Origin: a virus | Lineage: Duplodnaviria; Heunggongvirae; Uroviricota; Caudoviricetes | IMG/VR virus record: IMGVR_UViG_2537562215_000014 | Reading direction: 5' to 3' (one strand) | Length of the DNA stretch: 17,179 bases | Shown: piece after piece, positions 1,268 to 15,861 of the stretch | How the letters are laid out: each line of letters begins with the position of its first letter | Position numbering within the stretch: position 1 is the first letter of the stretch | Notes under the pieces: generated by a model | The model's database searches: none | Told to the model about the DNA's origin: nothing | The model's input: only the letters and a program-made list of their open reading frames with translations | Position numbers and translations under genes: made by a program

Positions 1268-2371
1268 ATGTACATTCAAGATATTCCTAAAGATTCAAAA
1301 TTTTGGGTTGTTCGATCTGGTGATGGCGGTATGTTTTATGACCACTTTGTGCACAACTCCATAGCAGCTATTGGGCACATTGACGCTATGGAATTTAGCG
1401 ATCAGACCCTCAGTAATAAAGATGAAGTGATTAAACTCGTTTATAATTACAAACAAACTTTGCTTGAAAAAAAGGAAACACTTGCATCTGCATCTAATAA
1501 AGCAGGCCAAGTTCTACGTTTCATTAATGAAATGTCAGTCGGTGATATAATTATAACTCTAGATGCAAGGAGAATAGTGGTCGGCAGGATCATATCTGGT
1601 CCTTATAAAGATATGGAAAATGTAACATTACTCAATGTTGATGGAACAACAGATGAAAAATTGCTTAAATTTACCCTTAGACGTAAAGTTGAATGGGGAA
1701 AAACGCAGTTTCGTGACAAACTTCCATTAGCCATAAATAATAGTTTCAGGGCTAATCAAACTGTTTTCTCAGCAAACGAGCACTGGAAAGAGCTTAATCA
1801 CTGGTTATCTGTTGCATTTATATCAGATAATGAAGCTTATATTTCCTCACGGATTGAGCAAACAGAAGGGATTAACAATCTTGACATTGCTCAATACTCC
1901 ATAATAATAAATAAAATTGAAGCTATTGCTCAAACAATCGCTAACAATGACAACTATCATTTCGATGATGATAAATTATTATCTCTCTTTGAAGATACAT
2001 ATAAAGAACTAAGAAAAAGTAGAACATTTACGGTAACGACACAACAGGTATTTCTTTCACCAGGAGATCTTTGGGCAAAAATATCTGGAAGCCGTAAAAA
2101 AAGCCTGTTAGTTATCTGCACATTTCTTATAATGTTCAATATTGAGCCATCTTTCGCAGATGAAAATGACAAAATATTTTTCGACAACAACTATGAAGCA
2201 ATATCTTTATTAATTAATAAAGTAAAACATGATGAAAACTTTGAGGAAGTAAAAAATGGATTAGCATTAAAAGTTCCTGCACAAAAACTAAACACAAAAA
2301 ACACCTCTACAAACCCCAATAAAAAACGCTATGATGATGATGTAGAACCAGACGACTTTGAAGGCATTTAA
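1268..2371 (+). CDS. hypothetical protein, cargo gene A (367 aa, soluble, acidic C-terminal tail); no family assignable by eye
   Basis: ATG at 1268 preceded by AAGGA (1256..1260, 7-nt spacing). Long uninterrupted ORF in visibly AT-rich DNA, where chance ORFs are rare. Starts 43 nt after the int stop. No Walker A, HNH or GS..DxD motif seen. Confidence 0.85.
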   Translation: MYIQDIPKDSKFWVVRSGDGGMFYDHFVHNSIAAIGHIDAMEFSDQTLSNKDEVIKLVYNYKQTLLEKKETLASASNKAGQVLRFINEMSVGDIIITLDARRIVVGRIISGPYKDMENVTLLNVDGTTDEKLLKFTLRRKVEWGKTQFRDKLPLAINNSFRANQTVFSANEHWKELNHWLSVAFISDNEAYISSRIEQTEGINNLDIAQYSIIINKIEAIAQTIANNDNYHFDDDKLLSLFEDTYKELRKSRTFTVTTQQVFLSPGDLWAKISGSRKKSLLVICTFLIMFNIEPSFADENDKIFFDNNYEAISLLINKVKHDENFEEVKNGLALKVPAQKLNTKNTSTNPNKKRYDDDVEPDDFEGI

Positions 2372-2375
2372 GAGG

Positions 2376-3029
2376 ATGATGAAGTTCATAAAAAAATGGT
2401 GGGATAACCATGATAAATCTAATAATTTTTTATCAGGTATCCATTACATCGTCATTTCGCTAGCTATCATAATTGGTGGCGCGTGGTCGTTGTATACCTT
2501 TGACGCATTACAAATGGCCAAAAATGCGGAAATCCAACTAAAAAAGGCTAACGAAGATTTAAAACAAATAAAAGAGCAAATTAAGGGCACTGACTCTAGC
2601 AGTATTGCTATTAATGTTATCCCGTTAAAAACACAGCTAGGAATGATTATTAATGTAACCATAAAAAATAACGGCAAACGACCATTATCCTTTGACACAT
2701 CCAAAGGAGCTTTAACTGTGTACAAAGTAAGCGCAAATGGCGATAAAGTTGAACAATCTCAATCTTTTACACCAAATCTCTATACATCTTTGAGAGATAA
2801 AAAACACTATCCAGAATCAAAAAGTAAATCATTATCAAAGACACATGTTTTAATAGGAGCAGAAAAAACCCTTAGCTATATTGTTGGATTAAATAAGCCA
2901 GGCGTTTATTATATTACATTTAGGTCAACACCAGATGATAATTTTGACACAGAAGAATTGAAAAACAAAAAACCTGTAGAATGGTTCGCTTCTTCATATG
3001 TTGAAATTACCCCACAAAAATATAAATAA
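2376..3029 (+). CDS. hypothetical bitopic membrane protein, cargo gene B (~217 aa; track ORF starts at TTG 2358, ATG 2376 or 2379 more likely)
   Basis: ATG 4 nt after the gene A stop (TAA 2369..2371), with AAGAGG at 2370..2375. Basic N-terminus MMKFIKKWWDNHDK, one hydrophobic helix LSGIHYIVISLAIIIGGAWSLYTF (about nt 2430..2498), then a charged heptad-like segment and a beta-rich C-terminal domain. AT-rich like gene A. Confidence 0.8.
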   Translation: MMKFIKKWWDNHDKSNNFLSGIHYIVISLAIIIGGAWSLYTFDALQMAKNAEIQLKKANEDLKQIKEQIKGTDSSSIAINVIPLKTQLGMIINVTIKNNGKRPLSFDTSKGALTVYKVSANGDKVEQSQSFTPNLYTSLRDKKHYPESKSKSLSKTHVLIGAEKTLSYIVGLNKPGVYYITFRSTPDDNFDTEELKNKKPVEWFASSYVEITPQKYK

Positions 3030-3354: not shown

Positions 3355-3518
3355 CGCCCGCTTTGCAGGGCGGTTTTAATGCAGTTGCACTGACACGCTC
3401 AGGCCGCGCCGGGAATGGCGTGTTTTGTTGATAATGGGGCGGGAAAACGCATGCAAAGTCATGCACCTTATCGATGCATGGCTTTTTTCAGTAAAAACAA
3501 GCGGGTTTTCGGGGAATT

Positions 3519-4091
3519 TTACACAGACTGACGTGATGCCAGTTGCGCACTTTTACGCGAAAAAATCATGTTCTGCGCAGGGGTGAATTTTTCACGGCAG
3601 TCATCCACCGAAGCCGCGTCAGGCCTGAATCCGATGGTCGTTAAAATGTCGCTATCCTGTGCGGAATAATTAATTTTTTCCCCCTTCGCAAGCCAGGACA
3701 GAAGGGCTTCACGCAAGGCATCTGTGGCACGCTGTATGGCACAGTTTCGGGCAATGGCCGTCAGTTCACTGTAGCCCATCAGCTCCGGTGCCAGTGCGGC
3801 CGCCAGTACTGTGCCGTGCTGCTGCATAAAATCATTCAGCCGGTCGCGGATGCTGATGTGCTGAACGGCTTCATGCGAACGAATATAACGACCGGCGGCC
3901 TGATTCACCTGCCATTTTCTGACTTCGATAATATTGCGTAATTCGTCCAGGCGACTGACGTTTCTGCCTTCTCCTGACAGAAGCCGCAGGTATTCCTGTT
4001 CGGCCGCTGCCAGCTCATTTTTGCGTTGCAGCCATGCTGCTTTGTTATTCTGACAGGTGTCAAAGGCCTGCTGTAAGGCTGTGCTTTCCAT
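3519..4091 (-). CDS. psu: Psu, polarity suppression / capsid decoration protein (Rho antagonist)
   Basis: 190 aa, the same length as P4 Psu. N-terminus MESTALQQAFDTCQNNKAAWLQRK matches my recollection of P4 Psu. Last gene of the sid-delta-psu operon. Confidence 0.88.
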   Translation of the reverse strand: MESTALQQAFDTCQNNKAAWLQRKNELAAAEQEYLRLLSGEGRNVSRLDELRNIIEVRKWQVNQAAGRYIRSHEAVQHISIRDRLNDFMQQHGTVLAAALAPELMGYSELTAIARNCAIQRATDALREALLSWLAKGEKINYSAQDSDILTTIGFRPDAASVDDCREKFTPAQNMIFSRKSAQLASRQSV

Positions 4092-4164
4092 CGTTATCTC
4101 TTTCTCATCATGCTGAAGAATAAAAATACGGTGTGCGGCGACGGCTGGTGTTAACCGGCAGCCC

Positions 4165-4665
4165 TCATTCCAGACGCAGCGAATATGATTGTGTTTTTAA
4201 CCGTACTGGCGGCAGTTCCTGTTTTTCATGCAGGCTTTCTGCCAGTTCGTCCGGTGTGACCGGGCGGACAATGAAGCGGTTGATGGTCTGAAGCGTTTTA
4301 AACACCAGACCACAGCCCGGATCCGTGCACACATAAAAACGCTCGGTGACTTCCTGAGACAGACGCCGCGATGTTCTTGACAGTGCAAGGCCTTTACATC
4401 TCCGACAACAATATCCGGTAACAAGCATTCTTTTCGGGCGTTTCATACTGCCGGAGGCTGACGTCAGTGAATCGCGGTATCTCTGTTTGCCTGAAATGTA
4501 TTCCATTCCTGAATCTTTACTGTCAGAGAAAAAGCTTTCACTCGCTTCAAATGTCGCAGAGCAATAAATATTCCGGCACTGTGCAATCATTATCTTGGTG
4601 CCATCGTCCATGAAATGTGCGCGGCGGGTGTGAGCAACATGTCCACACGACGGGCAGTAAATCAT
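4165..4665 (-). CDS. delta: Delta, late-gene transactivator (tandem Ogr-like zinc-finger modules)
   Basis: 166 aa (P4 Delta is 166 aa). Two Ogr-type Cys motifs: CPSCGH...CRNIYCSATF and CCRRCKG...CTDPGCGLVF. Start codon overlaps the sid stop (ATGA at 4662..4665). Confidence 0.88.
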   Translation of the reverse strand: MIYCPSCGHVAHTRRAHFMDDGTKIMIAQCRNIYCSATFEASESFFSDSKDSGMEYISGKQRYRDSLTSASGSMKRPKRMLVTGYCCRRCKGLALSRTSRRLSQEVTERFYVCTDPGCGLVFKTLQTINRFIVRPVTPDELAESLHEKQELPPVRLKTQSYSLRLE

Positions 4666-5396
4666 GACAGCAGTCCTCTGGCCTTAAGCTCTGCTCCCTG
4701 CTGGTCTATTTTGTCCTGCCACACCTTGCGCTGTGCCGGTGTGCCTGCCACCTCATAATCCATGTGCGGAAGTGTTGCCGCTGACAGTCCGGTCAGCCGG
4801 AGAACCGGCTCGCCGCTGAGGCTGATTTGCATCTGTTTAATTTTCTGTTCCAGCGATGATTTCACCTGCTGCATGACAGCCTTATCGGGTGCGACGTAGC
4901 CCTGATGGCCGGTGGTGTTGGCGAGCGGATTTTCCTGTACCAGAATGCTCAGATGCATTGCCCGGACAAGCGCCTCACAGGTTTCATTCAGGGCGTGTTC
5001 CAGCTCATGCTCTGCATACAGACTCAGAAGGTGATGATGTGCCTTCCGGTAGGCGGTGGCCGTGCTGTCACACGCCCCTTTCAGGCGTTCACGTTCAAAA
5101 TTCAGCACCACGGCCAGATTGTCATATTCCTGTACCAGCTCCCGGCGTGCCACGCGCTCAATGTGGCGCTGTTTCAGCTCGTCGCTCAGGACACCACCGG
5201 CTGCACGAAAGGATGTGCGCCAGTCATCAGCGTCATTTCCGTCGGCCTGCGCCAGCGCATTTTTTTCCTGCTCTGCCCGTTCAATGGCCGTGACGGTCTC
5301 ATCCATCAGTCGGGCGTTCTCAAGGTGGGCGGCTCTGGCCTTTTCCAGTTGTGCCAGTGCGGGTTGCAGATATTCAGGGATGGTGTTGTCAGACAT
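4662..5396 (-). CDS. sid: Sid, external capsid size-determination scaffold protein
   Basis: Track ORF starts at GTG 5414. ATG at 5396 gives 244 aa (P4 Sid is 244 aa) and has GAGGAG 8 nt upstream. Alpha-helical, Ala/Glu/Leu-rich composition. First gene downstream of the late-promoter dyad. Confidence 0.85.
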   Translation of the reverse strand: MSDNTIPEYLQPALAQLEKARAAHLENARLMDETVTAIERAEQEKNALAQADGNDADDWRTSFRAAGGVLSDELKQRHIERVARRELVQEYDNLAVVLNFERERLKGACDSTATAYRKAHHHLLSLYAEHELEHALNETCEALVRAMHLSILVQENPLANTTGHQGYVAPDKAVMQQVKSSLEQKIKQMQISLSGEPVLRLTGLSAATLPHMDYEVAGTPAQRKVWQDKIDQQGAELKARGLLS

Positions 5397-5468
5397 TTTC
5401 CGGCTCCTCGTCACTTCAGGTTAAGAAAATTGTGACGTACACCGGACAACAACACGACGCATTGCAGA

Positions 5469-5486
5469 TGTGCCAGCCCTGACACA
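5469..5486 (-). promoter_or_regulatory. Psid late promoter activator site (Ogr/Delta-type TGT-N12-ACA dyad)
   Basis: TGT GCCAGCCCTGAC ACA. Centre is ~55 bp upstream of the inferred sid transcription start (~5420), matching P2/P4 late-promoter architecture. Confidence 0.6.
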
Positions 5487-5565
5487 GGAGACTCATCCTC
5501 AGACCGGCAAGCCAGGAAAAGGTCGCAGGAAAAACCGGCTTACTGTTTGTTTTTTTATATTTTAC

Positions 5566-5669
5566 TGTTCACCTCTGTTCACCATAAGAAAAAAGATAAG
5601 TAATACAGTAAGTTAAAGGGTGAATAATCGCAGTAATGACTGTTCACCGTCTGTTCACCACTGTTCACC
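5566..5669. repeat. Replication-origin-like iteron cluster: five direct TGTTCACC octamers plus one degenerate inverted copy
   Basis: TGTTCACC at 5566, 5576, 5641, 5652 and 5662; GGTGAATA at 5618. P4 alpha binds type I iterons of this sequence. Lies about 4.8 kb from the crr repeats. Confidence 0.65.
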
Positions 5670-5828
5670 CGTTGATGGGCTTTTTGTGCTGTTTATTACT
5701 GTTTGTTTTTATTAATTCGCCGGGAATGAATAAGAAAAAACGATTTGTATTTCACTATAAAAATTACGAATTGCTTTAAGTGGCTTTAAATGACTTTAAG
5801 TGGAGATGAACAAAAAATACACAAGCAT

Positions 5829-5846
5829 TGTAAGGCTGCCGGAACA
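5829..5846 (+). promoter_or_regulatory. PLL-like late leftward promoter activator site (TGT-N12-ACA dyad)
   Basis: TGT AAGGCTGCCGGA ACA. Placing the start ~55 bp downstream (~5892) puts it ~396 bp upstream of the PLE-like start (~6288), close to the ~400 bp spacing I recall for P4 PLL/PLE. Confidence 0.5.
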
Positions 5847-5948
5847 AATCCCCCCTGTTGCGTCTGCCAAAAATATTCACAAAATAAAGCGCTACCCGAA
5901 GCCGGACGGACTTATCCGGTGCTGTATGGACATTAACGAGGTAGCCCG

Positions 5949-6215
5949 ATGCAAGCTGTTTTTTCTTCCCCGTCTCCCGCCCCTGTGACGCCACTGATGC
6001 CGCTGCCGGACATCACGCAGGAGCGTTTTTTACGTCTGCCGGAAGTGATGCACCTGTGCGGCCTGTCACGCTCGACAATCTATGAACTCATCCGTAAGGG
6101 GGAATTTCCGCCGCAGGTGAGTCTTGGCGGTAAAAATGTGGCCTGGCTGCACTCTGAAGTCACCGCATGGATGGCCGGGCGCATTGCCGGACGCAAACGG
6201 GGGTATGACGCATGA
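5949..6215 (+). CDS. vis: Vis/AlpA-family helix-turn-helix regulator (excisionase-like)
   Basis: 88 aa. Motif [47 protein letters not shown] is typical of AlpA/Vis. GAGG lies 9 nt upstream of the ATG. First gene after the PLL-like site. Confidence 0.85.
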
Positions 6216-6250
6216 TGATGCCCGCTCTGCAAAAACTCCCTTTTTCTGGC

Positions 6251-6280
6251 TTGCCTTTTTCCGGCATTTGCGGATATAGT
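6251..6280 (+). promoter_or_regulatory. PLE-like sigma70 promoter (-35 TTGCCT, 18-bp spacer, -10 TATAGT)
   Basis: Hexamers at 6251..6256 and 6275..6280, immediately downstream of vis, where P4 PLE is expected. Confidence 0.5.
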
Positions 6281-6343
6281 CTTTCCGTTGCCGCAAAATC
6301 GGCAGCCGGGCGTGAGAACCCGTGTAACTCGAAGGCGACATAT

Positions 6344-6365
6344 GACGCGCCATGCGTCTTTTTTT
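6344..6365 (+). terminator. Short hairpin followed by U7 in the PLE leader (candidate attenuator / immunity terminator)
   Basis: GACGCG-CCA-TGCGTC (6-bp stem including one G-U) followed by TTTTTTT at 6359..6365, ~60 nt downstream of the predicted PLE start. Confidence 0.35.
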
Positions 6366-6604
6366 GTGTCGCAATCAACGCCACAGAGCGCCAGATTATG
6401 GTGTGGCGTGTGGTTTGCCGTGCAGGTATGATCCTGTTCGCAATCGCATGTTATGCCACTGAGTCAATGGTAGCTCAGGCGGGGCAGCCTCCGGGCTGGC
6501 CGGTATTCTTCGAGGCCGGTATTCTCACCCCCGTCTGGGCTATCGCCATCGAGCGTGAGAACTCCGGCGATAGCAGTTATTTGCTACTCGAAGGAGGCTG
6601 CCTT

Positions 6605-6802
6605 ATGGCTACAACCCTTACCCCCTCACACCCTGAATTTGTCTTTGTGTTTGCGGCTGTCCGTCGCGCAGACCGTCATCCCCGTATCTGTATGCTTCGC
6701 ACCGTCGCCGGTGATGAACGCAGTGCCCGCCGTTCCTTTGTCCGTGACTATGTGCTCTCCCTTGCTGCCCGTCTGCCGGTGGTGGAGGTGTCCCGTGCGT
6801 AA
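6605..6802 (+). CDS. small hypothetical protein of the left operon (65 aa)
   Basis: ATG at 6605 with AAGGAGG (6591..6597, 7-nt spacing). Its stop overlaps the next gene's start, suggesting translational coupling. Confidence 0.55.
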
Positions 6803-7082
6803 TAAAAAAGCCCCTCAGACCGTCTCAGCGCGTCATGACGCCTGTGAACACCTCAGCATTGAGGCTTACCATAAGCTCAACCGCGCCAGCGCCGTATCCC
6901 AGTTTGTTGGGGGTGATTTGATTCACCGTGAACTCTCCGGCCTGCATCAGCTCTACATTCCGCATATTTTCAGCTACCTGAATGAAGATATTGATTTTGT
7001 GCTGAATGAGCTGAAAGCCAAAGGCCTGTGCCGCGATTTTCTCGCCCAGCAGAAAGACCGGGGAGACAGGACGCATGTTTGA
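6795..7082 (+). CDS. small protein (~95 aa) at the position of P4 epsilon; function inferred from position only
   Basis: GTG at 6795 with GGAGGTG 4 nt upstream. The stop overlaps the start of the 151-aa ORF (7075). The track ORF is longer (starts 6555), but the SD supports the 6795 start. Confidence 0.5.
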
Positions 7083-7530
7083 TTTTCCCCAGCCCGGTGA
7101 GATTTACCGTTCTGCCGGTTTTCCCGATGTGGCCGTGGTCGGCATTCTGGAAGACGGTATTCCGTGGGAAATGCCGTACCGCTGCCCGGACATTGTCTGG
7201 AACCCGTACCGCCGTAAATTCAGTATCCTTGTGCGTATCCTCGCCGACGGGCGCACCACAGACATCCCGCTGGGGCGTTTTCTGCGGGAATTTACCTGTG
7301 ACCGTCCTGACCTGTTTAAACGCAGCCCCGTAAACCGGCATGCGGTACTGAAAGAAATGGCCGGAGACCCGGAATTACAGAAATGGCGGGAGAAATATCT
7401 GGATATTTACCCGCAGGACCCTGTTCCGGTCAGCCGGGCGGCACCGGTGGCGCGGGAATGGCGGGAAATTCCCCGCACGGAGCCTGACCCGGAAATCACC
7501 CCGGATAACAGTTACCGCAATTATCTGTAA
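7075..7530 (+). CDS. hypothetical protein (151 aa; same length and position as P4 orf151)
   Basis: ATG at 7075 with GGGAGA upstream. Codon usage matches the backbone; co-oriented in the alpha operon. Confidence 0.75.
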   Translation: MFDFPQPGEIYRSAGFPDVAVVGILEDGIPWEMPYRCPDIVWNPYRRKFSILVRILADGRTTDIPLGRFLREFTCDRPDLFKRSPVNRHAVLKEMAGDPELQKWREKYLDIYPQDPVPVSRAAPVAREWREIPRTEPDPEITPDNSYRNYL

Positions 7531-7665
7531 TTAAAAAACGACACCCGAAAAATTAAATGTGCGTATTCGCGCAGGGATACGCACGTCTTCAGGAGACGCA
7601 GATATGCCTTATCAGTTAATGCAACCGGCACGGAATGCAGTCATCTGTCACAGGGAGGAAAGCAA

Positions 7666-7986
7666 ATGAAAACACCCTTACCGCCCGTCTTACGCGCAGC
7701 CCTTTACCGTCGTGCTGTCGCCTGTGCCTGGCTGACCGTGTGCGAACGTCAGCACCGCTACCCGCATCTCACCCTTGAATCACTGGAGGCGGCCATCGCC
7801 GCTGAGCTGGAGGGCTTTTATCTGCGCCAGCACGGTGAGGAAAAAGGGCGTCAGATAGCCTGTGCCCTGCTGGAAGATTTAATGGAATCCGGCCCCCTGA
7901 AGGCCGCGCCGTCGCTGTCCTTTCTCGGGCTGGTTGTGATGGATGAACTCTGTGCCCGTCACATAAAAGCGCCGGTACTGCACTGA
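7666..7986 (+). CDS. hypothetical protein (106 aa; same length and position as P4 orf106)
   Basis: ATG at 7666 with GGGAGG 7 nt upstream. Lies immediately upstream of alpha. Confidence 0.75.
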
Positions 7987-8000
7987 AGGAGAACAACACC

Positions 8001-10334
8001 ATGAAAATGAACGTAACCGCCACCGTCAGCCATGCGCTCGGCCACTGGCCGCGTATTCTCCCGGCGCTGGGGATTCAGGTGCTGAAAAACCGTCATCAGC
8101 CCTGTCCGGTCTGTGGCGGGAGGGACCGCTTCCGTTTTGATGACAGGGAGGGGCGCGGCACCTGGTACTGCAATCAGTGTGGTGCCGGTGACGGCCTGAA
8201 ACTGGTTGAAAAGGTGTTTGGTGTTTCCCCGTCCGACGCGGCCGCAAAGGTGGCTGCCGTGACCGGCAGTCTGCCCCCGGCTGACCTGGCAGTGACGGCC
8301 GCCGCCGTTGCTGAAACAGACGCTGCCCGGAAGAACGCCGCCGCACTGGCACAAACCCTGATGGCAAAAACCCGTCCCGGAACCGGTAACGCCTACCTGA
8401 CCCGCAAGGGCTTTCCCGGCCGGGAATGCCGGATGCTGACCGGCACACACAGAGCCGGTGGCGTGAGCTGGCGCGCCGGTGACCTTGTGGTGCCACTGTA
8501 TGACGACAGCGGCGAACTGGTTAACCTTCAGTTAATCAGTGCTGACGGCCGTAAGCGCACCCTGAAAGGCGGACAGGTCAGGGGCACCTGTCACATCCTT
8601 GAAGGACAGAATCAGACCGGAAAACGTCTGTGGATAGCGGAGGGATACGCGACCGCACTTACCGTACATCACCTGACCGGTGAAACGGTGATGGTGGCGC
8701 TTTCTTCCGTGAACCTCCTTTCTCTGGCCAGCCTTGCCCGGCAGAAGCATCCGGCCTGTCAGATTGTCCTTGCCGCTGACCGTGACCTCAGCGGTGACGG
8801 CCAGAAAAAAGCCGCCGCAGCCGCAGATGCGTGTGAAGGTGTTGTTGCACTGCCGCCGGTCTTCGGTGACTGGAATGATGCCTTCACGCAGTACGGCGGG
8901 GAAGCCACCCGTAAGGCCATTTATGATGCTATCCGGCCACCGGCTGAAAGCCCGTTCGACACCATGAGCGAAGCAGAGTTTTCCGCCATGAGTACCAGCG
9001 AAAAGGCCATGCGTATCTATGAGCATTACGGCGAGGCGCTCGCGGTTGATGCCAACGGCCAGCTTCTGTCCCGTTATGAAAATGGTGTCTGGAAGGTGCT
9101 GCCGCCACAGGACTTTGCCCGGGATGTGGCCGGGCTGTTTCAGCGTCTGCGCGCGCCGTTCTCCTCCGGGAAGGTGGCCTCCGTGGTGGACACCCTGAAG
9201 CTGATTATTCCGCAGCAGGAAGCCCCCTCCCGCCGCCTGATTGGCTTTCGTAACGGCGTGCTCGACACGCAGAACGGCACGTTCCACCCGCACAGTCCGT
9301 CACACTGGATGCGTACCCTGTGCGATGTGGATTTCCCCCCGCCGGTGGAAGGGGAAACGCTGGAAACCCACGCCCCCGCGTTCTGGCGCTGGCTTGACCG
9401 TGCCGCCGGTGGCCGTGCGGAAAAACGCGACGTGATTCTGGCCGCACTGTTTATGGTGCTGGCAAACCGCTACGACTGGCAGCTCTTTCTGGAGGTGACC
9501 GGTCCCGGCGGCAGCGGCAAAAGTATCATGGCCGAAATAGCCACCCTGCTGGCCGGGGAGGATAACGCCACGTCGGCCACCATTGAGACGCTGGAATCCC
9601 CGCGTGAACGTGCCGCGTTAACTGGCTTCTCACTGATACGCCTGCCGGACCAGGAAAAATGGAGCGGCGACGGTGCCGGACTCAAGGCCATCACCGGCGG
9701 CGATGCGGTGTCCGTGGATCCGAAATACCGGGATGCGTACTCCACGCATATCCCGGCGGTGATTCTGGCCGTGAACAATAACCCGATGCGCTTCACCGAC
9801 CGCAGCGGCGGCGTGTCACGCCGGCGGGTGATTATTCACTTCCCGGAACAGATAGCCCCGCAGGAGCGCGACCCGCAGCTTAAGGACAAAATCACCCGCG
9901 AGCTGGCGGTCATCGTGCGTCACCTGATGCAGAAGTTCAGCGACCCGATGCTCGCCCGGTCACTGCTTCAGTCCCAGCAGAACTCAGACGAGGCGCTGAA
10001 CATCAAACGGGATGCCGACCCGACGTTTGATTTTATCGGCTATCTGGAAACCCTGCCGCAGACCAGCGGCATGTATATGGGGAACGCCAGTATCATCCCG
10101 CGTAATTACCGTAAATACCTCTATCACGCCTATCTGGCCTACATGGAGGCAAACGGCTACCGGAATGTACTCAGTCTGAAAATGTTCGGGCTGGGGCTGC
10201 CGGTGATGCTGAAGGAATACGGGCTGAATTACGAGAAGCGCCATACCAAACAGGGGATACAGACCAACCTGACGCTGAAAGAGGAAAGCTACGGCGACTG
10301 GCTGCCAAAATGTGACGACCCTGCAACAGCCTGA
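8001..10334 (+). CDS. alpha: Alpha: primase-helicase replication protein with origin binding (P4 alpha family)
   Basis: 777 aa, the same length as P4 alpha. N-terminal zinc motif CPVCGG...YCNQCG, TOPRIM-like EGYATAL and AADRD, Walker A GPGGSGKS (nt 9501..9524). AAGGAG RBS. Followed by TGTTCACC iterons. Confidence 0.92.
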   Translation: MKMNVTATVSHALGHWPRILPALGIQVLKNRHQPCPVCGGRDRFRFDDREGRGTWYCNQCGAGDGLKLVEKVFGVSPSDAAAKVAAVTGSLPPADLAVTAAAVAETDAARKNAAALAQTLMAKTRPGTGNAYLTRKGFPGRECRMLTGTHRAGGVSWRAGDLVVPLYDDSGELVNLQLISADGRKRTLKGGQVRGTCHILEGQNQTGKRLWIAEGYATALTVHHLTGETVMVALSSVNLLSLASLARQKHPACQIVLAADRDLSGDGQKKAAAAADACEGVVALPPVFGDWNDAFTQYGGEATRKAIYDAIRPPAESPFDTMSEAEFSAMSTSEKAMRIYEHYGEALAVDANGQLLSRYENGVWKVLPPQDFARDVAGLFQRLRAPFSSGKVASVVDTLKLIIPQQEAPSRRLIGFRNGVLDTQNGTFHPHSPSHWMRTLCDVDFPPPVEGETLETHAPAFWRWLDRAAGGRAEKRDVILAALFMVLANRYDWQLFLEVTGPGGSGKSIMAEIATLLAGEDNATSATIETLESPRERAALTGFSLIRLPDQEKWSGDGAGLKAITGGDAVSVDPKYRDAYSTHIPAVILAVNNNPMRFTDRSGGVSRRRVIIHFPEQIAPQERDPQLKDKITRELAVIVRHLMQKFSDPMLARSLLQSQQNSDEALNIKRDADPTFDFIGYLETLPQTSGMYMGNASIIPRNYRKYLYHAYLAYMEANGYRNVLSLKMFGLGLPVMLKEYGLNYEKRHTKQGIQTNLTLKEESYGDWLPKCDDPATA

Positions 10335-10341
10335 CCCACCT

Positions 10342-10365
10342 GACCGGCATCTGCCGGTCTTTTTT
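10342..10365 (+). terminator. rho-independent terminator of the alpha operon
   Basis: GACCGGC-ATCT-GCCGGTC stem-loop followed by TTTTTTT, 8 nt after the alpha stop. Confidence 0.7.
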
Positions 10366-10380
10366 TATCCCGACATCCCC

Positions 10381-10685
10381 CGAAGGTGAACAATCCACTG
10401 TTCACCCTTCACCGTATATTCACCCGTTATCACACTGAAATTAAAAGAGAAAAACGAAAGGTGAACAGTGTGAACAATCAAATCAAAAAAAACTTTTTTC
10501 TTCCTGAGTGATTTCAGTACGGGGGATTAATCACCGGTATGAGTCACACCGGCAGAATGCCGGAGGTGAAGAATCGAATGTTCACCCTTCACCCATTATT
10601 CACCACCTATCACTCTGAAATAAAAGGAGAAAAAAGAAAGGTGAACAGTGTGAACAGTTCTTTCGAAAAAAAATTTTTTTCCTGT
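10381..10685. repeat. crr-like cis replication region: two ~125-bp direct repeats (10381..10505 and 10561..10685), each with TGTTCACC/GGTGAACA iterons
   Basis: The two copies are near-identical at 180-bp periodicity. Each contains GGTGAA, TGTTCACC, TTCACC, and GGTGAACAGTGTGAACA followed by an A-run/T-run. Matches the P4 crr description (two ~120-bp repeats next to alpha). Confidence 0.7.
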
Positions 10686-11000: not shown

Positions 11001-11372
11001 TCAGAACGACCAGTTCACACCAGCTACCCCGTTCCACGGGGATTCCACACCGGCACCATGGCTATACCCCACCCCAAGATGCCCGCTTAACGTACTGCTG
11101 AATGAGGCTTTAATACCTGCCTGGTATATTCCACGTCTGCCCGACAAATCATTGACGAAATTACCGTCACTATTCACTTTCACCCGGTTATCATCGACAA
11201 ATTCTTTGCGCACAGCCGCCTTCAGCCACGGCTCAACTTCCATACCGTTCCCCAGACGCATGTTGTAACTCAGCGTTGCACCCAGTTCACGATATAAACT
11301 GCGGGTATCGACTGATTTCGATTCCATGCCATTGGATAAATGATATTCAGGGTTATCAGCGATGAACCCCCG
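11001..11372 (-). pseudogene. autotransporter beta-barrel C-terminal segment, out of frame with the passenger segment (ends ...GVNWSF)
   Basis: C-terminal aromatic-x-Phe motif NWSF typical of type Va autotransporters. This frame is open back to the stop at 11373..11375; it is shifted relative to the 626-aa ORF at a C5 run (11367..11371). Confidence 0.75.
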
Positions 11373-13294
11373 TTAACGATGCATACGGCGTCAGGTTCCA
11401 GTTACCATCGGTAAATCGCATCCCGGTTTCAATGTGACCGCCCAGCCCGTTGCTGCGATAACTGCCGTTGGCGGCTCCACCGCTGCCAACCGTGGAGTCG
11501 CGAGCTTCGGTACCTGCTAATACCAATAAATTACCGCCATTTTCCAGCAACATATTGGTCGCTAAATTGCCGGAAATGGAAAAAGTGCCGTACTGGTGAG
11601 TACCGCTGATTTCAATACCGTTAGCCGTGCTCGTCTGGAGAGCGGCACCGCTGTTCTGGACGATATCTGTCGCTTTGCCATTATCGTTAACTGTCAGCGT
11701 ACCGCCTTCATTGATCTTTGTTTTTATTGCCTCTCCGTTAGCTGAAACTGTTTGTATTCCGCCGTCGTTAATCGTTGTCTCATTCGCCACCCCCTCGACG
11801 ATTTGTTCGCCGCCGGTGAGCGTCGTGCCTGTCGCAGTGGCTTTTGTTTTGACGATCTCCCGTCCGCCCGTATTGACCTGTGTTTTGTCAGAAGAGGTGT
11901 CTGACTCCATGGTTAACACGCCGCCATTTGCCAGCAGGATATTGTTCGCCGCACCCTGCTCGATGCTGAACGCGACGCCATCCGCGCGTGTTCCTGTGAC
12001 CCGCGTCGCCCTGGTGGTTGCAACCAAAGCGTCCTGGCTACTCTGCTGTATCCCCGTTGCGCTGCCTTTCTCCCGCACATCGAGTGTGCCGCCGTCATTA
12101 AGCACCGAGTTTTCAGCCAGACCGCCCTCATTAACTACCTGTGAACACCCATTAATAATGGAACCTTCCGCTGTCCCGTTTGCCATAATTTGTTGTAGGC
12201 CAGAGACGATATCGGTATTGATTGCCTTACCATAATTCTGAACGGTTTGCGTGCCACCATTGATGTGTGTTTTCTCTGTTGACCCACCATCAACAATTTG
12301 TTCACCACTTTCGATATTTGCCTCAGTGGCTAATCCATATACCGTTTGCTTGCCACCTTTGATATTTGCTTTATCAGAAGTGGCACTGGCATATATTGTT
12401 TGGGTGCCAGCACTATTGAGTACAGTGCCAACATCTTTTCCATAAACATCCATTTTGCCGTTGGCATTAATAATCGTATCAACTGCCCGGGAACCAGTGA
12501 CGACTGTTAATGAGCCAGCGTTTTCCAGCACTACATTTTTAGCTTCTGAATTCCTGATGTAGAAAGCATCACCATAACTGTTGGTTCCTTCGATAAGGGT
12601 TCCGGAAGTTGTGGAAGCAATTAATGCGCCGCCGGATTGTTGCTCAACATGCTTAGCCTCACCACCGTCCTGAACCTCCAGAACGCCACCATTATTAAGT
12701 CTGGTGGTATCTGTTTTAGCCTCCTTCTGGACAATCAGCTTACCGCCAGCATCAACGGTAGTATTTTTCGCCGAGGTTTTAGCCACTACCGTCAGTTCGC
12801 CGGTATTTTCCAGCACAACATAATTAGCCTCCCCTCCGGTAATAGTGAAGTGAGAGAGCTTGTTGTATCCTTCAATATCAGTCCCTGCGCCCGTGTTGGC
12901 AACTAAAGCACTGCCCGTCTCCTGGTTAACCCCATGTGCAATACCACCGGTATAGACAATCAGCGAGCCTCCGGCGCTAATATTGCTGCCAGTTGCCGTA
13001 CCATCTTTCTCAACAACCTGCCGGCTCCCGGAGGATATAATTGTCGTGTCAGCTTTCCCGCCGCTCTTGATATTTTGCGTTCCGCCGTTGATATTGGTAC
13101 CCGTGGCAATACCATGATTATTAATATTCTGTGTACCACCATTGATTATGGTATTGGTCGCGTTTCCGGTAACATCCATTACCCCGCCGTTATCTATTCG
13201 GGTCGCATCAGCTTTAGCATTCGTTAAAACTGACATTGTTCCTTTATCTTTAATAATCGTCTTGTTTGCCGAACCATATGCGTTTATGTCTAAA
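11356..13294 (-). pseudogene. AIDA-type autotransporter adhesin, passenger segment distal to the IS insertion
   Basis: 626-aa ORF rich in ~19-aa Gly/Thr/Asn passenger repeats (TTINGG, GGTQ, NVVLENAG). The reading frame continues seamlessly across the IS insertion point. Confidence 0.8.
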
Positions 13295-13302
13295 TGTAGT
13301 GG

Positions 13303-15523
<2,221 letters not shown>

Positions 15524-15861
15524 AAATTTCATCCTCTGAAAAGTGAATACTGAGTAGCGTTTAAGCGACCTTAGCTTTGCTGCAACATCAGCCCACAGGC
15601 ACCAGACCAGGGGATTCATCCTGAAGAGACAGCGCAAGTGTATTGTGTTCACCGCTCATCAAAGACATCATGATGAAATGATGATATTCCGCATAAGAAT
15701 GAGGCATTTTTTAAACGCAGTGCGCTGAAGTGTGGTTGGATAAAAAAGTCAATCCATTCAGGAAATACGGGCGTATTCTTTTCTTTCGACAATGAGGCCG
15801 TTGGCAAAATAAAATGATTTACATAATCGTTTCTGATGAATATCTTCTGCTCACATAAAAA

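Follow-up and report, generated by a model that had tools for sequence, protein, structure and literature searches.

The RNA-based immunity of phage P4 depends on a small antisense RNA, CI, which is cut at its 5' end by RNase P, trimmed exonucleolytically at its 3' end, and causes premature transcription termination and superinfection immunity. The elements of the P4 immunity region follow one another in the order PLE, seqA, t1, cI/seqB, seqC and kil, and all of them are nested in eta. The same RNA family (Rfam clan CL00128) includes the immI region of P1 and P7 (c4 RNA with a'/b', targets a1 b1 and a2 b2, icd and ant) and the CB RNA of N15; all share pairing through two blocks, a single transcript that holds the RNA flanked by its targets, and a downstream target that covers the start of a small gene of the icd/kil type. 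The cargo downstream differs, being an antirepressor in P1 and N15 and replication genes in the P4-like satellites, and through-translation of the eta type from a late promoter is a P4 feature, unlike P1/P7 and N15. In P4, PLE lies inside eta and Kil is a truncated form made from PLE transcripts (PMC10111431, citing Forti et al. 1999); only transcripts from the late promoter yield full-length Eta, by translation coupled to that of the alpA homologue, and this translation prevents termination (PMC10111431). The RNAs IsrK and C4 have been described as structural homologues of the P4 seqA and CI RNA (Barquist et al. 2013, PMC3632133), a homology also given, with a summary of the P4 mechanism, by Hershko-Shalev et al. 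2016 (PMC4825925); that mechanism is summarised in all three sources (PMC3632133, PMC4825925, PMC10111431). Here we analyse positions 6251-6604 of a 17,179-nucleotide (nt) stretch of viral DNA (IMG/VR record IMGVR_UViG_2537562215_000014; the whole stretch is called the window below). An earlier look at the letters, made with no database searches (the sequence-only reading), had singled out these positions as a candidate P4-type RNA immunity or attenuation leader.

Our analysis indicates that the region is very probably the immunity switch by which an E. coli satellite prophage of the P4 type maintains lysogeny. As predicted from its sequence, the switch would consist of a promoter, a leader with a terminator, a small CI antisense RNA and two target sites, with a pairing specificity unlike that of P4. 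P4-type RNA immunity regions are an already known kind of locus, and this one is ordinary, but it is without annotation in public genomes. BLAST against phage records aligned window positions 3355-10679 with P4 4291-11624 at 97.7% identity, and positions 5900-6900 with the P4 orf88-PLE-cI-kil segment at 94.7%. Additionally, an Rfam scan of the whole window at gathering thresholds returned c4-a1b1, isrK and C4, all on the + strand and within the coordinates singled out before, and a permissive search of 6150-6900 gave the same three families and nothing else, with no hit to a separate model for the downstream target. The P4-type PLE promoter, attenuation leader and RNA immunity that had been proposed are thus borne out by two of the checks suggested with them, alignment to the P4 immunity region and a covariance-model search. 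The setting agrees with this, since the gene order is that of P4 (int, psu, delta, sid, vis/orf88, eta/kil, eps, orf151, orf106 and a 777-amino-acid (aa) alpha primase-helicase) and the Pfam matches in the element comprise Psu, Ogr_Delta, Phage_AlpA, Derepression, DUF5375, primase-helicase domains and an integrase; both the 97.7% identity and the Pfam content place the locus in a P4-like satellite, as expected of a P4-type CI/C4 system. Every defining feature of such systems (RF01695, RF03163, clan CL00128) that can be tested on a sequence was found here, and processing and immunity would follow by homology.

The comparison with P4 also shows where the two elements part. Element order and flanking genes are the same, the promoter and the CI scaffold are identical, the terminator is one base off, block 1 of the pairing (GUGAGAA/UUCUCAC) is the same and the Kil protein is nearly identical. 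The differences are block 2, the spacer at 6428-6455, which lacks 9 nt and carries many substitutions, and two compensating 1-nt indels before kil. The immunity region (94.7%) is the most diverged stretch of the P4-like core (97.7%), and it is mainly the pairing blocks and the spacer 6428-6455 that carry its substitutions. A 381-nt stretch is identical in E. coli Ec42 (NZ_CP059119) and has matches in 998 of 5426 complete E. coli genomes (about 18%), at 1187 places in all, and the N15-like phages phiKO2 and PY54 gave weak DNA matches that were confined to 6467-6575. The elements of the switch are the following:

6251-6280, + strand: PLE promoter, with -35 TTGCCT, an 18-nt spacer and -10 TATAGT, identical to P4
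6287-6365, + strand: leader, or short RNA ending at the probable t1 (homologue of IsrK and of the 'SeqA RNA'; Rfam isrK and c4-a1b1)
6287-6293/6300-6306, + strand: leader hairpin H1, from the centroid fold
6307-6310/6319-6322, + strand: leader hairpin H2, from the centroid fold, with seqA block 1 in its loop
6312-6318, + strand: seqA block 1, GUGAGAA, in the H2 loop; pairs with CI 6522-6528, 7/7 Watson-Crick
6328-6335, + strand: seqA block 2, CUCGAAGG, single-stranded; pairs with CI loop 6507-6514, 7 Watson-Crick pairs and one G-U
6344-6365, + strand: intrinsic terminator, stem 6344-6349/6353-6358 and T7 at 6359-6365
6366-6462, + strand: variable spacer from terminator to cI, the most divergent part, including the 9-nt deletion relative to P4
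about 6469-6548, + strand: CI antisense RNA (Rfam C4 match 6463-6550), with predicted ends
6469-6484/6529-6544, + strand: terminal (outer) stem of CI, 16 pairs
6485-6489/6494-6498, + strand: first hairpin of CI
6499-6503/6516-6520, + strand: second hairpin of CI, whose 12-nt loop carries block 2, UUCUUCGAG (6506-6514)
6522-6528, + strand: CI block 1, UUCUCAC, single-stranded
6545-6548, + strand: 3' tail of CI, GCCA
6555-6561, + strand: seqC block 1, GUGAGAA; pairs with CI 6522-6528
6587-6595, + strand: seqC block 2, CUCGAAGGA; pairs with CI loop 6506-6514 and overlaps the kil Shine-Dalgarno GGAGG (6593-6597)

Further evidence comes from the pairing of CI with its two targets. We compared a close set of 80 IMG/VR loci with Kil at least 86% identical and a wider set of 95 unique regions, found in IMG/VR with a pattern of the CI scaffold that allowed any base at the variable positions; the comparison covered about 180 related loci. 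Pairing was judged by counting mismatches in register and by the energies of short-oligonucleotide duplexes, as long-segment duplexes let the CI scaffold unfold. In the window, CI pairs without mismatch with the upstream target (seqA, or a1 b1; 7 + 8 pairs) and with the downstream target over the kil/icd ribosome-binding site (seqC, or a2 b2; 7 + 9 pairs), where GGAGG lies 7 nt before the ATG at 6605. In a 24-sequence alignment, 97.8% of the seqA-CI positions were paired, with 9/15 pairs changed on both sides, and the corresponding values for CI-seqC were 99.2% and 9/16. When the partner was slid by 1-3 columns pairing fell to 36-55%, and the observed values were reached by 0/500 shuffles. Taken separately, seqA block 1 has three co-varying alleles and 99.4% of its cells paired, against 40-54% in the slid controls; seqA block 2 shows both-side changes at 6/8 pairs; seqC block 1 is paired in 100% of cells, with both-side changes at 3/7 pairs; and seqC block 2 is 98.6% paired, with both-side changes at 6/9 pairs. 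Furthermore, all four CI-target duplexes are free of mismatches in the window, in 77/81 close relatives (window and P4 included) and in 86/95 of the wider regions, and over all the related loci complementarity is perfect in 86-95%. On this comparative evidence, the pairing between CI and its targets is real and probably specificity-defining.

The exceptions to perfect matching are few. In three loci (L043, L078 and L089) the seqA allele does not belong to the type of the CI and seqC that follow it, and these loci look like recombinants with a breakpoint between seqA and cI; further exceptions are L028, L069, L132 and L160, and the 'CCUAUGAC' type of CI has imperfect targets at both sites.

The leader differences from P4 cluster at three places, seqA, the CI loop and seqC. 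The P4 block UUCACAGG has become CUCGAAGG through the same three substitutions in both targets, and the CI loop has changed from CCUGUGAA to UCUUCGAG by the three complementary changes plus one extra C-to-U that gives a G-U pair. Since seqA, CI and seqC thus differ from P4 at matching paired positions of the loop block, three in each, the immunity specificity of this element is predicted to differ from that of P4. Duplex energies for short oligonucleotides agree with this prediction: the loop of the window on its own seqA gave -11.5 kcal/mol, compared to -1.7 on the P4 seqA and -4.2 for the P4 loop on the seqA of the window, and on its own seqC it gave -12.9 kcal/mol versus -3.9 and -6.4 when one of the two partners was taken from P4. 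Sabbattini and co-workers are said to have described in 1996 (in Virology 216:389) that the retronphage phiR73 is heteroimmune to P4 through altered seqA, seqB and seqC, the same principle of heteroimmunity as would apply here. The window allele is a common one, because the exact window-type 42-mer was found in 88 complete E. coli genomes; the P4-type was found in 206. In addition, the G-U wobble of the window stands at the same position of both block-2 duplexes (6335/6507 and 6594/6507, with CI U6507) and the block-1 alleles differ from each other by transitions only, both as predicted by a wobble-mediated path of three-site specificity switching.

The repertoire of blocks is broad. In the close set, block 1 occurs as GUGAGAA, GUGGAAA and GUAGGAA and block 2 as five main alleles, and the 95 unique regions hold 31 allele combinations (3 of block 1 by about 20 of block 2). 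Tentatively, and with slightly less than even confidence, we propose that the two blocks form a combinatorial RNA 'barcode' that sets the immunity groups of satellite versus satellite, with the leader RNA as a possible decoy for CI; in such a scheme the choice of barcodes would be further limited by the need for an open eta frame. If every combination works as a heteroimmunity group and their breadth is uncatalogued, the P4-like satellites would have an RNA specificity locus that is hypervariable and easy to read. A survey of P4-like elements, as checked by the terms immunity, RNA, kil and eta, is silent on the allele repertoire in its text; the breadth of the two-block repertoire may be uncatalogued, as an only mildly new angle. 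A 2025 review of phage small RNAs (sRNAs) does not mention the P4 CI. In the sequences fetched, few genomes had two elements; one pair of co-resident satellites had different barcodes and one pair identical ones. A further locus (L151, IMGVR_UViG_2660238469_000005) has two immunity regions, at 5762 and 8379 on the reverse strand, 2.6 kb apart and identical over 600 nt, as a result either of tandem duplication or of an error in assembly.

The CI RNA, which the sequence-only reading had expected within 6251-6604 without being able to place it, was located by Rfam C4 at 6463-6550; the match covers the full model (1-87) and scores 74.3 bits, where 45 is the gathering score. It has the architecture of the family, about 80 nt with a long terminal stem that encloses two hairpins, and a minimum free energy of -48.2 kcal/mol (z = -4.69). 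The scaffold is nearly invariant, with 26 pairs 100% paired in 24 sequences. Of the processing, the hallmark visible in the sequence is only the tRNA-like terminal stem with its 3' GCCA tail. We also observed an alternative 9-pair helix, 6539-6547/6566-6574 (GCUAUCGCC / GGCGAUAGC), in which the 3' strand of the CI terminal stem takes part and whose loop would present seqC block 1, like H2 does for seqA, in competition with the CI fold in unprocessed transcripts. In 24 sequences this helix is paired at 98.6%, and its 2 compensatory pairs come from essentially one lineage.

Upstream of CI, the sigma70 promoter that had been read as TTGCCT-18-TATAGT was recovered at 6251-6280 both by a consensus scan and by identity with P4. 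Positions 6207-6280 are base-for-base those of P4, whose record X02534 labels the same TATAGT '-10 consensus'. PLE thus stands upstream of a leader and of an intrinsic terminator before cI; its constitutive activity is predicted by homology with P4, and transcription probably starts at about 6287, which is 7 nt past the -10 and the first position of the isrK model. The isrK family (RF01394) matched 6287-6364 with 67 bits against a gathering score of 50, over model positions 1-77 of 77 and with the terminator as its 3' element, and c4-a1b1 ('targets of C4 antisense RNA') matched 6274-6326 with 50.3 bits against 46.7. The leader has the IsrK arrangement of two 5' hairpins, a spacer and a Rho-independent terminator; its centroid fold recovers H1, H2 and t1, and these helices are 99.9% paired across 24 sequences.

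The 6-bp hairpin with a seven-T run that had been noticed about 60 nt downstream of the promoter also held up, at 6344-6365. Its stem (6344-6358) reads GACGCG-CCA-TGCGTC, with 6 pairs including one G-U and followed by seven T, and begins 64 nt past the -10 hexamer. Hairpin and T-run are invariant in 24/24 representative relatives except for one G-U/G-C pair, and in the wider sample the closing pair shows a compensatory change from G-C to C-G and the T-run is retained, at a length of 6-8. Lying between PLE and cI, it has the position that Briani et al. reportedly gave in 2000 for t1, the CI-dependent intrinsic terminator of P4, and by this position it is probably t1. The spacer that follows (6366-6462) has variable-site fractions of 0.66/0.67/0.78 at codon positions 1/2/3, without codon bias, and indels of 6, 9, 12, 39 and 40 nt.

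The leader also raises the most serious rival explanation. The short leader RNA (6287-6365) could be the main regulator in trans, like IsrK of Gifsy-1, titrating CI or pairing with the CI segment of read-through transcripts. By making seqC and the kil ribosome-binding site accessible it would then signal anti-immunity or induction, and would be more than a by-product of attenuation. The Gifsy-1 arrangement IsrK - STnc1160/orf45 - anrP (PMC4825925) resembles the locus closely: the leader fits the IsrK model end to end, terminator included (the full-length match given above), a processed C4-like RNA follows (the ~80-nt STnc1160 downstream in Salmonella), and a single promoter gives both the short and the read-through isoform. 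Moreover, the blocks of seqA and seqC have the same sequence, so that leader RNA would compete with seqC for CI, IsrK is called a structural homologue of the P4 SeqA RNA (PMC4825925), and IsrK-like elements of P4-like prophages were scored as 'required' in transposon libraries of S. Typhi (PMC3632133). In Salmonella, the short IsrK was shown to act in trans, activating translation of the read-through mRNA, which leads to AntQ antitermination and growth arrest (PMC4825925), whereas the genes downstream in the window are kil, eps, orf151, orf106 and alpha, with no homologue of anrP or antQ among them. Hfq binding and a trans-activation that ends in AnrP/AntQ expression are hallmarks of IsrK, and a function of this kind would be conjectural for the leader RNA here. 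The work on P4 in PMC4825925 and PMC10111431 treats seqA as a target in cis, constitutive STnc1160 did not counteract IsrK, unlike what simple titration predicts (PMC4825925), and expression and stability of the leader RNA of this element would rest on analogy. We therefore consider it unlikely that the leader RNA is the main regulator; such a function would concern the role of one part and is compatible with a CI-based immunity switch.

The whole arrangement is embedded in an open reading frame (ORF) of 196 codons, which together with its neighbours is laid out as follows:

5949-6215, + strand: vis/orf88, 88 aa, AlpA-family excisionase/regulator (Pfam Phage_AlpA, 74 bits), with the position and length of P4 ORF88
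6212-6802, + strand: eta homologue, 196 codons, spanning promoter, leader, CI and seqC and ending as kil
6605-6802, + strand: kil, 65 aa, the last 65 codons of eta, 'Icd-like' in RefSeq

Transcripts from the late promoter have vis as their first gene, and the TGA that ends vis shares bases with the ATG of eta (ATGA, 6212-6215). From 6212 to kil the eta frame has no stop, compared to 3 and 7 stops in the other two frames, and only 1.06% of dinucleotide shuffles were free of stops. The frame is open through the leader in 78/81 close and 95/100 wider relatives, and the eta-specific part, of 354, 378, 387, 390 or 399 nt, has a length divisible by 3 in 77/80 although indels of 3-45 nt occur, so that an ORF conserved from the vis stop to the end of kil is present here as in P4, where by our own count eta has 199 codons (134 + 65) versus 196 in the window. 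Kil measures 63-65 aa in 94/100 relatives. The amino-acid sequence behaves differently: the variable fraction in eta codons 2-131 is 0.45/0.43/0.48 at positions 1/2/3, without periodicity, whereas an excess at the third position is seen in vis (0.35/0.27/0.74), kil (0.15/0.09/0.51) and eps (0.32/0.30/0.59). Purifying selection on the amino acids was thus not detected in the first 131 codons, and only the kil part is protein-like. As judged from these comparisons, the eta frame is selected to stay open and the amino-acid sequence of codons 1-131 is not.

These data bear on the simplest alternative, that the region just encodes a 196-aa 'Ash/Icd-like' protein and that its RNA-like features are incidental. 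RefSeq/PGAP does annotate the whole ORF as one coding sequence, a 'host cell division inhibitor Icd-like protein' (e.g. L086 10973-11563), the frame is conserved, and Pfam Phage_ASH (PF10554) matches residues 22-143 with 78 bits. This match falls on the stretch that encodes the RNA elements and is explained by nucleotide conservation of the RNA scaffold, however, and the lack of a third-position excess in codons 1-131, the compensatory changes that link sites as far as about 270 nt from each other, the matches to three RNA covariance models and a promoter identical to the P4 PLE within the ORF all speak against a protein-only origin, which we consider very improbable. Phage_ASH and 'Icd-like' are protein labels placed over mainly conserved RNA, and the three RefSeq E. 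coli records that we inspected carry no RNA feature over promoter, leader, CI or targets. The sequence-only reading had doubted, from its Cys-rich and odd composition (we count 7 Cys in the first 131 residues), that the 196-aa ORF is one real protein. This was right as regards the first 131 codons, which lack a codon-position signature, but not as regards the frame, which is kept open and is the homologue of P4 eta. It had also held that a genuine conserved protein across 6212..6802 would tell against RNA immunity; the frame is indeed conserved, yet the argument is not valid, as ORF and RNA elements coexist by design.

Taken as a CI-based immunity switch, the locus would work as follows. The constitutive PLE (6251-6280) would make a leader transcript, part of which stops at the terminator (6344-6365), and the read-through transcript would be processed to a stable CI RNA of ~80 nt (about 6469-6548), exposing the loop UUCUUCGAG and the single-stranded UUCUCAC, complementary to seqA upstream and seqC downstream. 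Pairing with seqC would cover the ribosome-binding site of kil, the first gene to be translated on PLE transcripts, and leave kil untranslated; this block would lead to termination ahead of eps, orf151, orf106 and alpha, the genes for replication, and keep the prophage quiescent. Pairing with seqA would in turn raise termination at the leader terminator and lower the amount of CI, as an autoregulation. Transcripts from the late promoter would escape, as ribosomes ending vis (6213-6215) would re-initiate at the ATG at 6212 and translate eta through leader, CI and seqC. The P4 homology, the folds, the four complementarities with their co-variation, the overlap of seqC with the kil ribosome-binding site and the conservation of the terminator and of the eta frame were observed in our analysis. 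CI processing, Rho-dependent termination, the effect of CI at t1 and the effect of eta are presumed to be as in P4. The P4 steps beyond those in the summaries cited above were reportedly worked out by Briani et al. in 2000 and by Forti et al. in 1995 and 2002.

Several points weigh against this account. The transcription start, the CI ends, processing, leader termination and the translation block are predictions from sequence, and the details of t1, t4, timm and RNase P are carried over from P4 at second hand. Block 1 is the same as in P4, which possibly allows partial cross-immunity; because of this shared block, the predicted immunity is altered but possibly only partly separate. The fold of the whole leader is no better than that of shuffles (z = -0.61), and its structure is therefore based on the covariance-model and comparative evidence instead of on its fold energy. 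No conserved antiterminator that would link seqA pairing with termination was seen on inspecting the leader by eye; one candidate, 6320-6324 with 6345-6349, was dropped as it is not conserved in P4. Lastly, the bare patterns are found at chance frequency. The consensus scan of 5700-7200 gave one sigma-70-like site only, TTGCCT-18-TATAGT at 6251-6280, and one terminator-like site only, compared to 1.5 ± 1.2 and 1.7 ± 1.5 in shuffles of the region, as would be expected if both motifs were functionless chance matches. The promoter and the hairpin are taken as real because of homology and conservation, not because of the pattern: the promoter stretch is base-for-base that of P4, and the motifs are kept in about 180 loci, where the hairpin shows a compensatory change, and are matched by Rfam. 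The comparative data refute a chance origin, to which we give practically no credence.

For the window, the main value of these results is one of annotation, as a promoter, a terminator, a regulatory RNA and two targets lie under one coding-sequence label. The allele probably places the element in a different immunity group from P4, which bears on the coexistence and superinfection of satellites in a strain. More generally, the comparative data are a clean natural case of three-way compensatory evolution, and eta is an example of an ORF selected for its translatability and not for its product.

Some observations were also made outside the immunity region. Two of the related contigs, L003 (JAYRPG010000055.1) and L004 (SFGJ01000059.1), are short and were placed in metagenome-assembled genomes of Ferruginibacter and Clostridiales; they are 88-92% identical to the kil region, in a translated comparison made in the wrong frame, and their placement is probably a case of mis-binning or contamination. 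In the window, two cargo ORFs lie at 1268-3029, between the integrase (1-1224) and the cos/psu end, at the position known as a defence hotspot in P4. For one, of 367 aa, the PADLOC candidate system PDC-S02 scored 64 bits and a model of a type II restriction enzyme gave a weak match; the other, of 223 aa, gave no significant match. Outside the P4-like element, 14362-14484 on the - strand is a full-length Rfam match to isrC, an Hfq-binding sRNA (150.4 bits, gathering 39), and adjoins an insertion sequence (IS)-type integrase fragment (13549-14049, rve) and ORFs with AIDA repeats. The latter, at 11356-13236 and 14537-15652 on the - strand, contain AIDA autotransporter stalk repeats (PF16168, 357 and 88 bits) with IS remnants between them, and look like a disrupted adhesin gene beyond the alpha-side end of the satellite.

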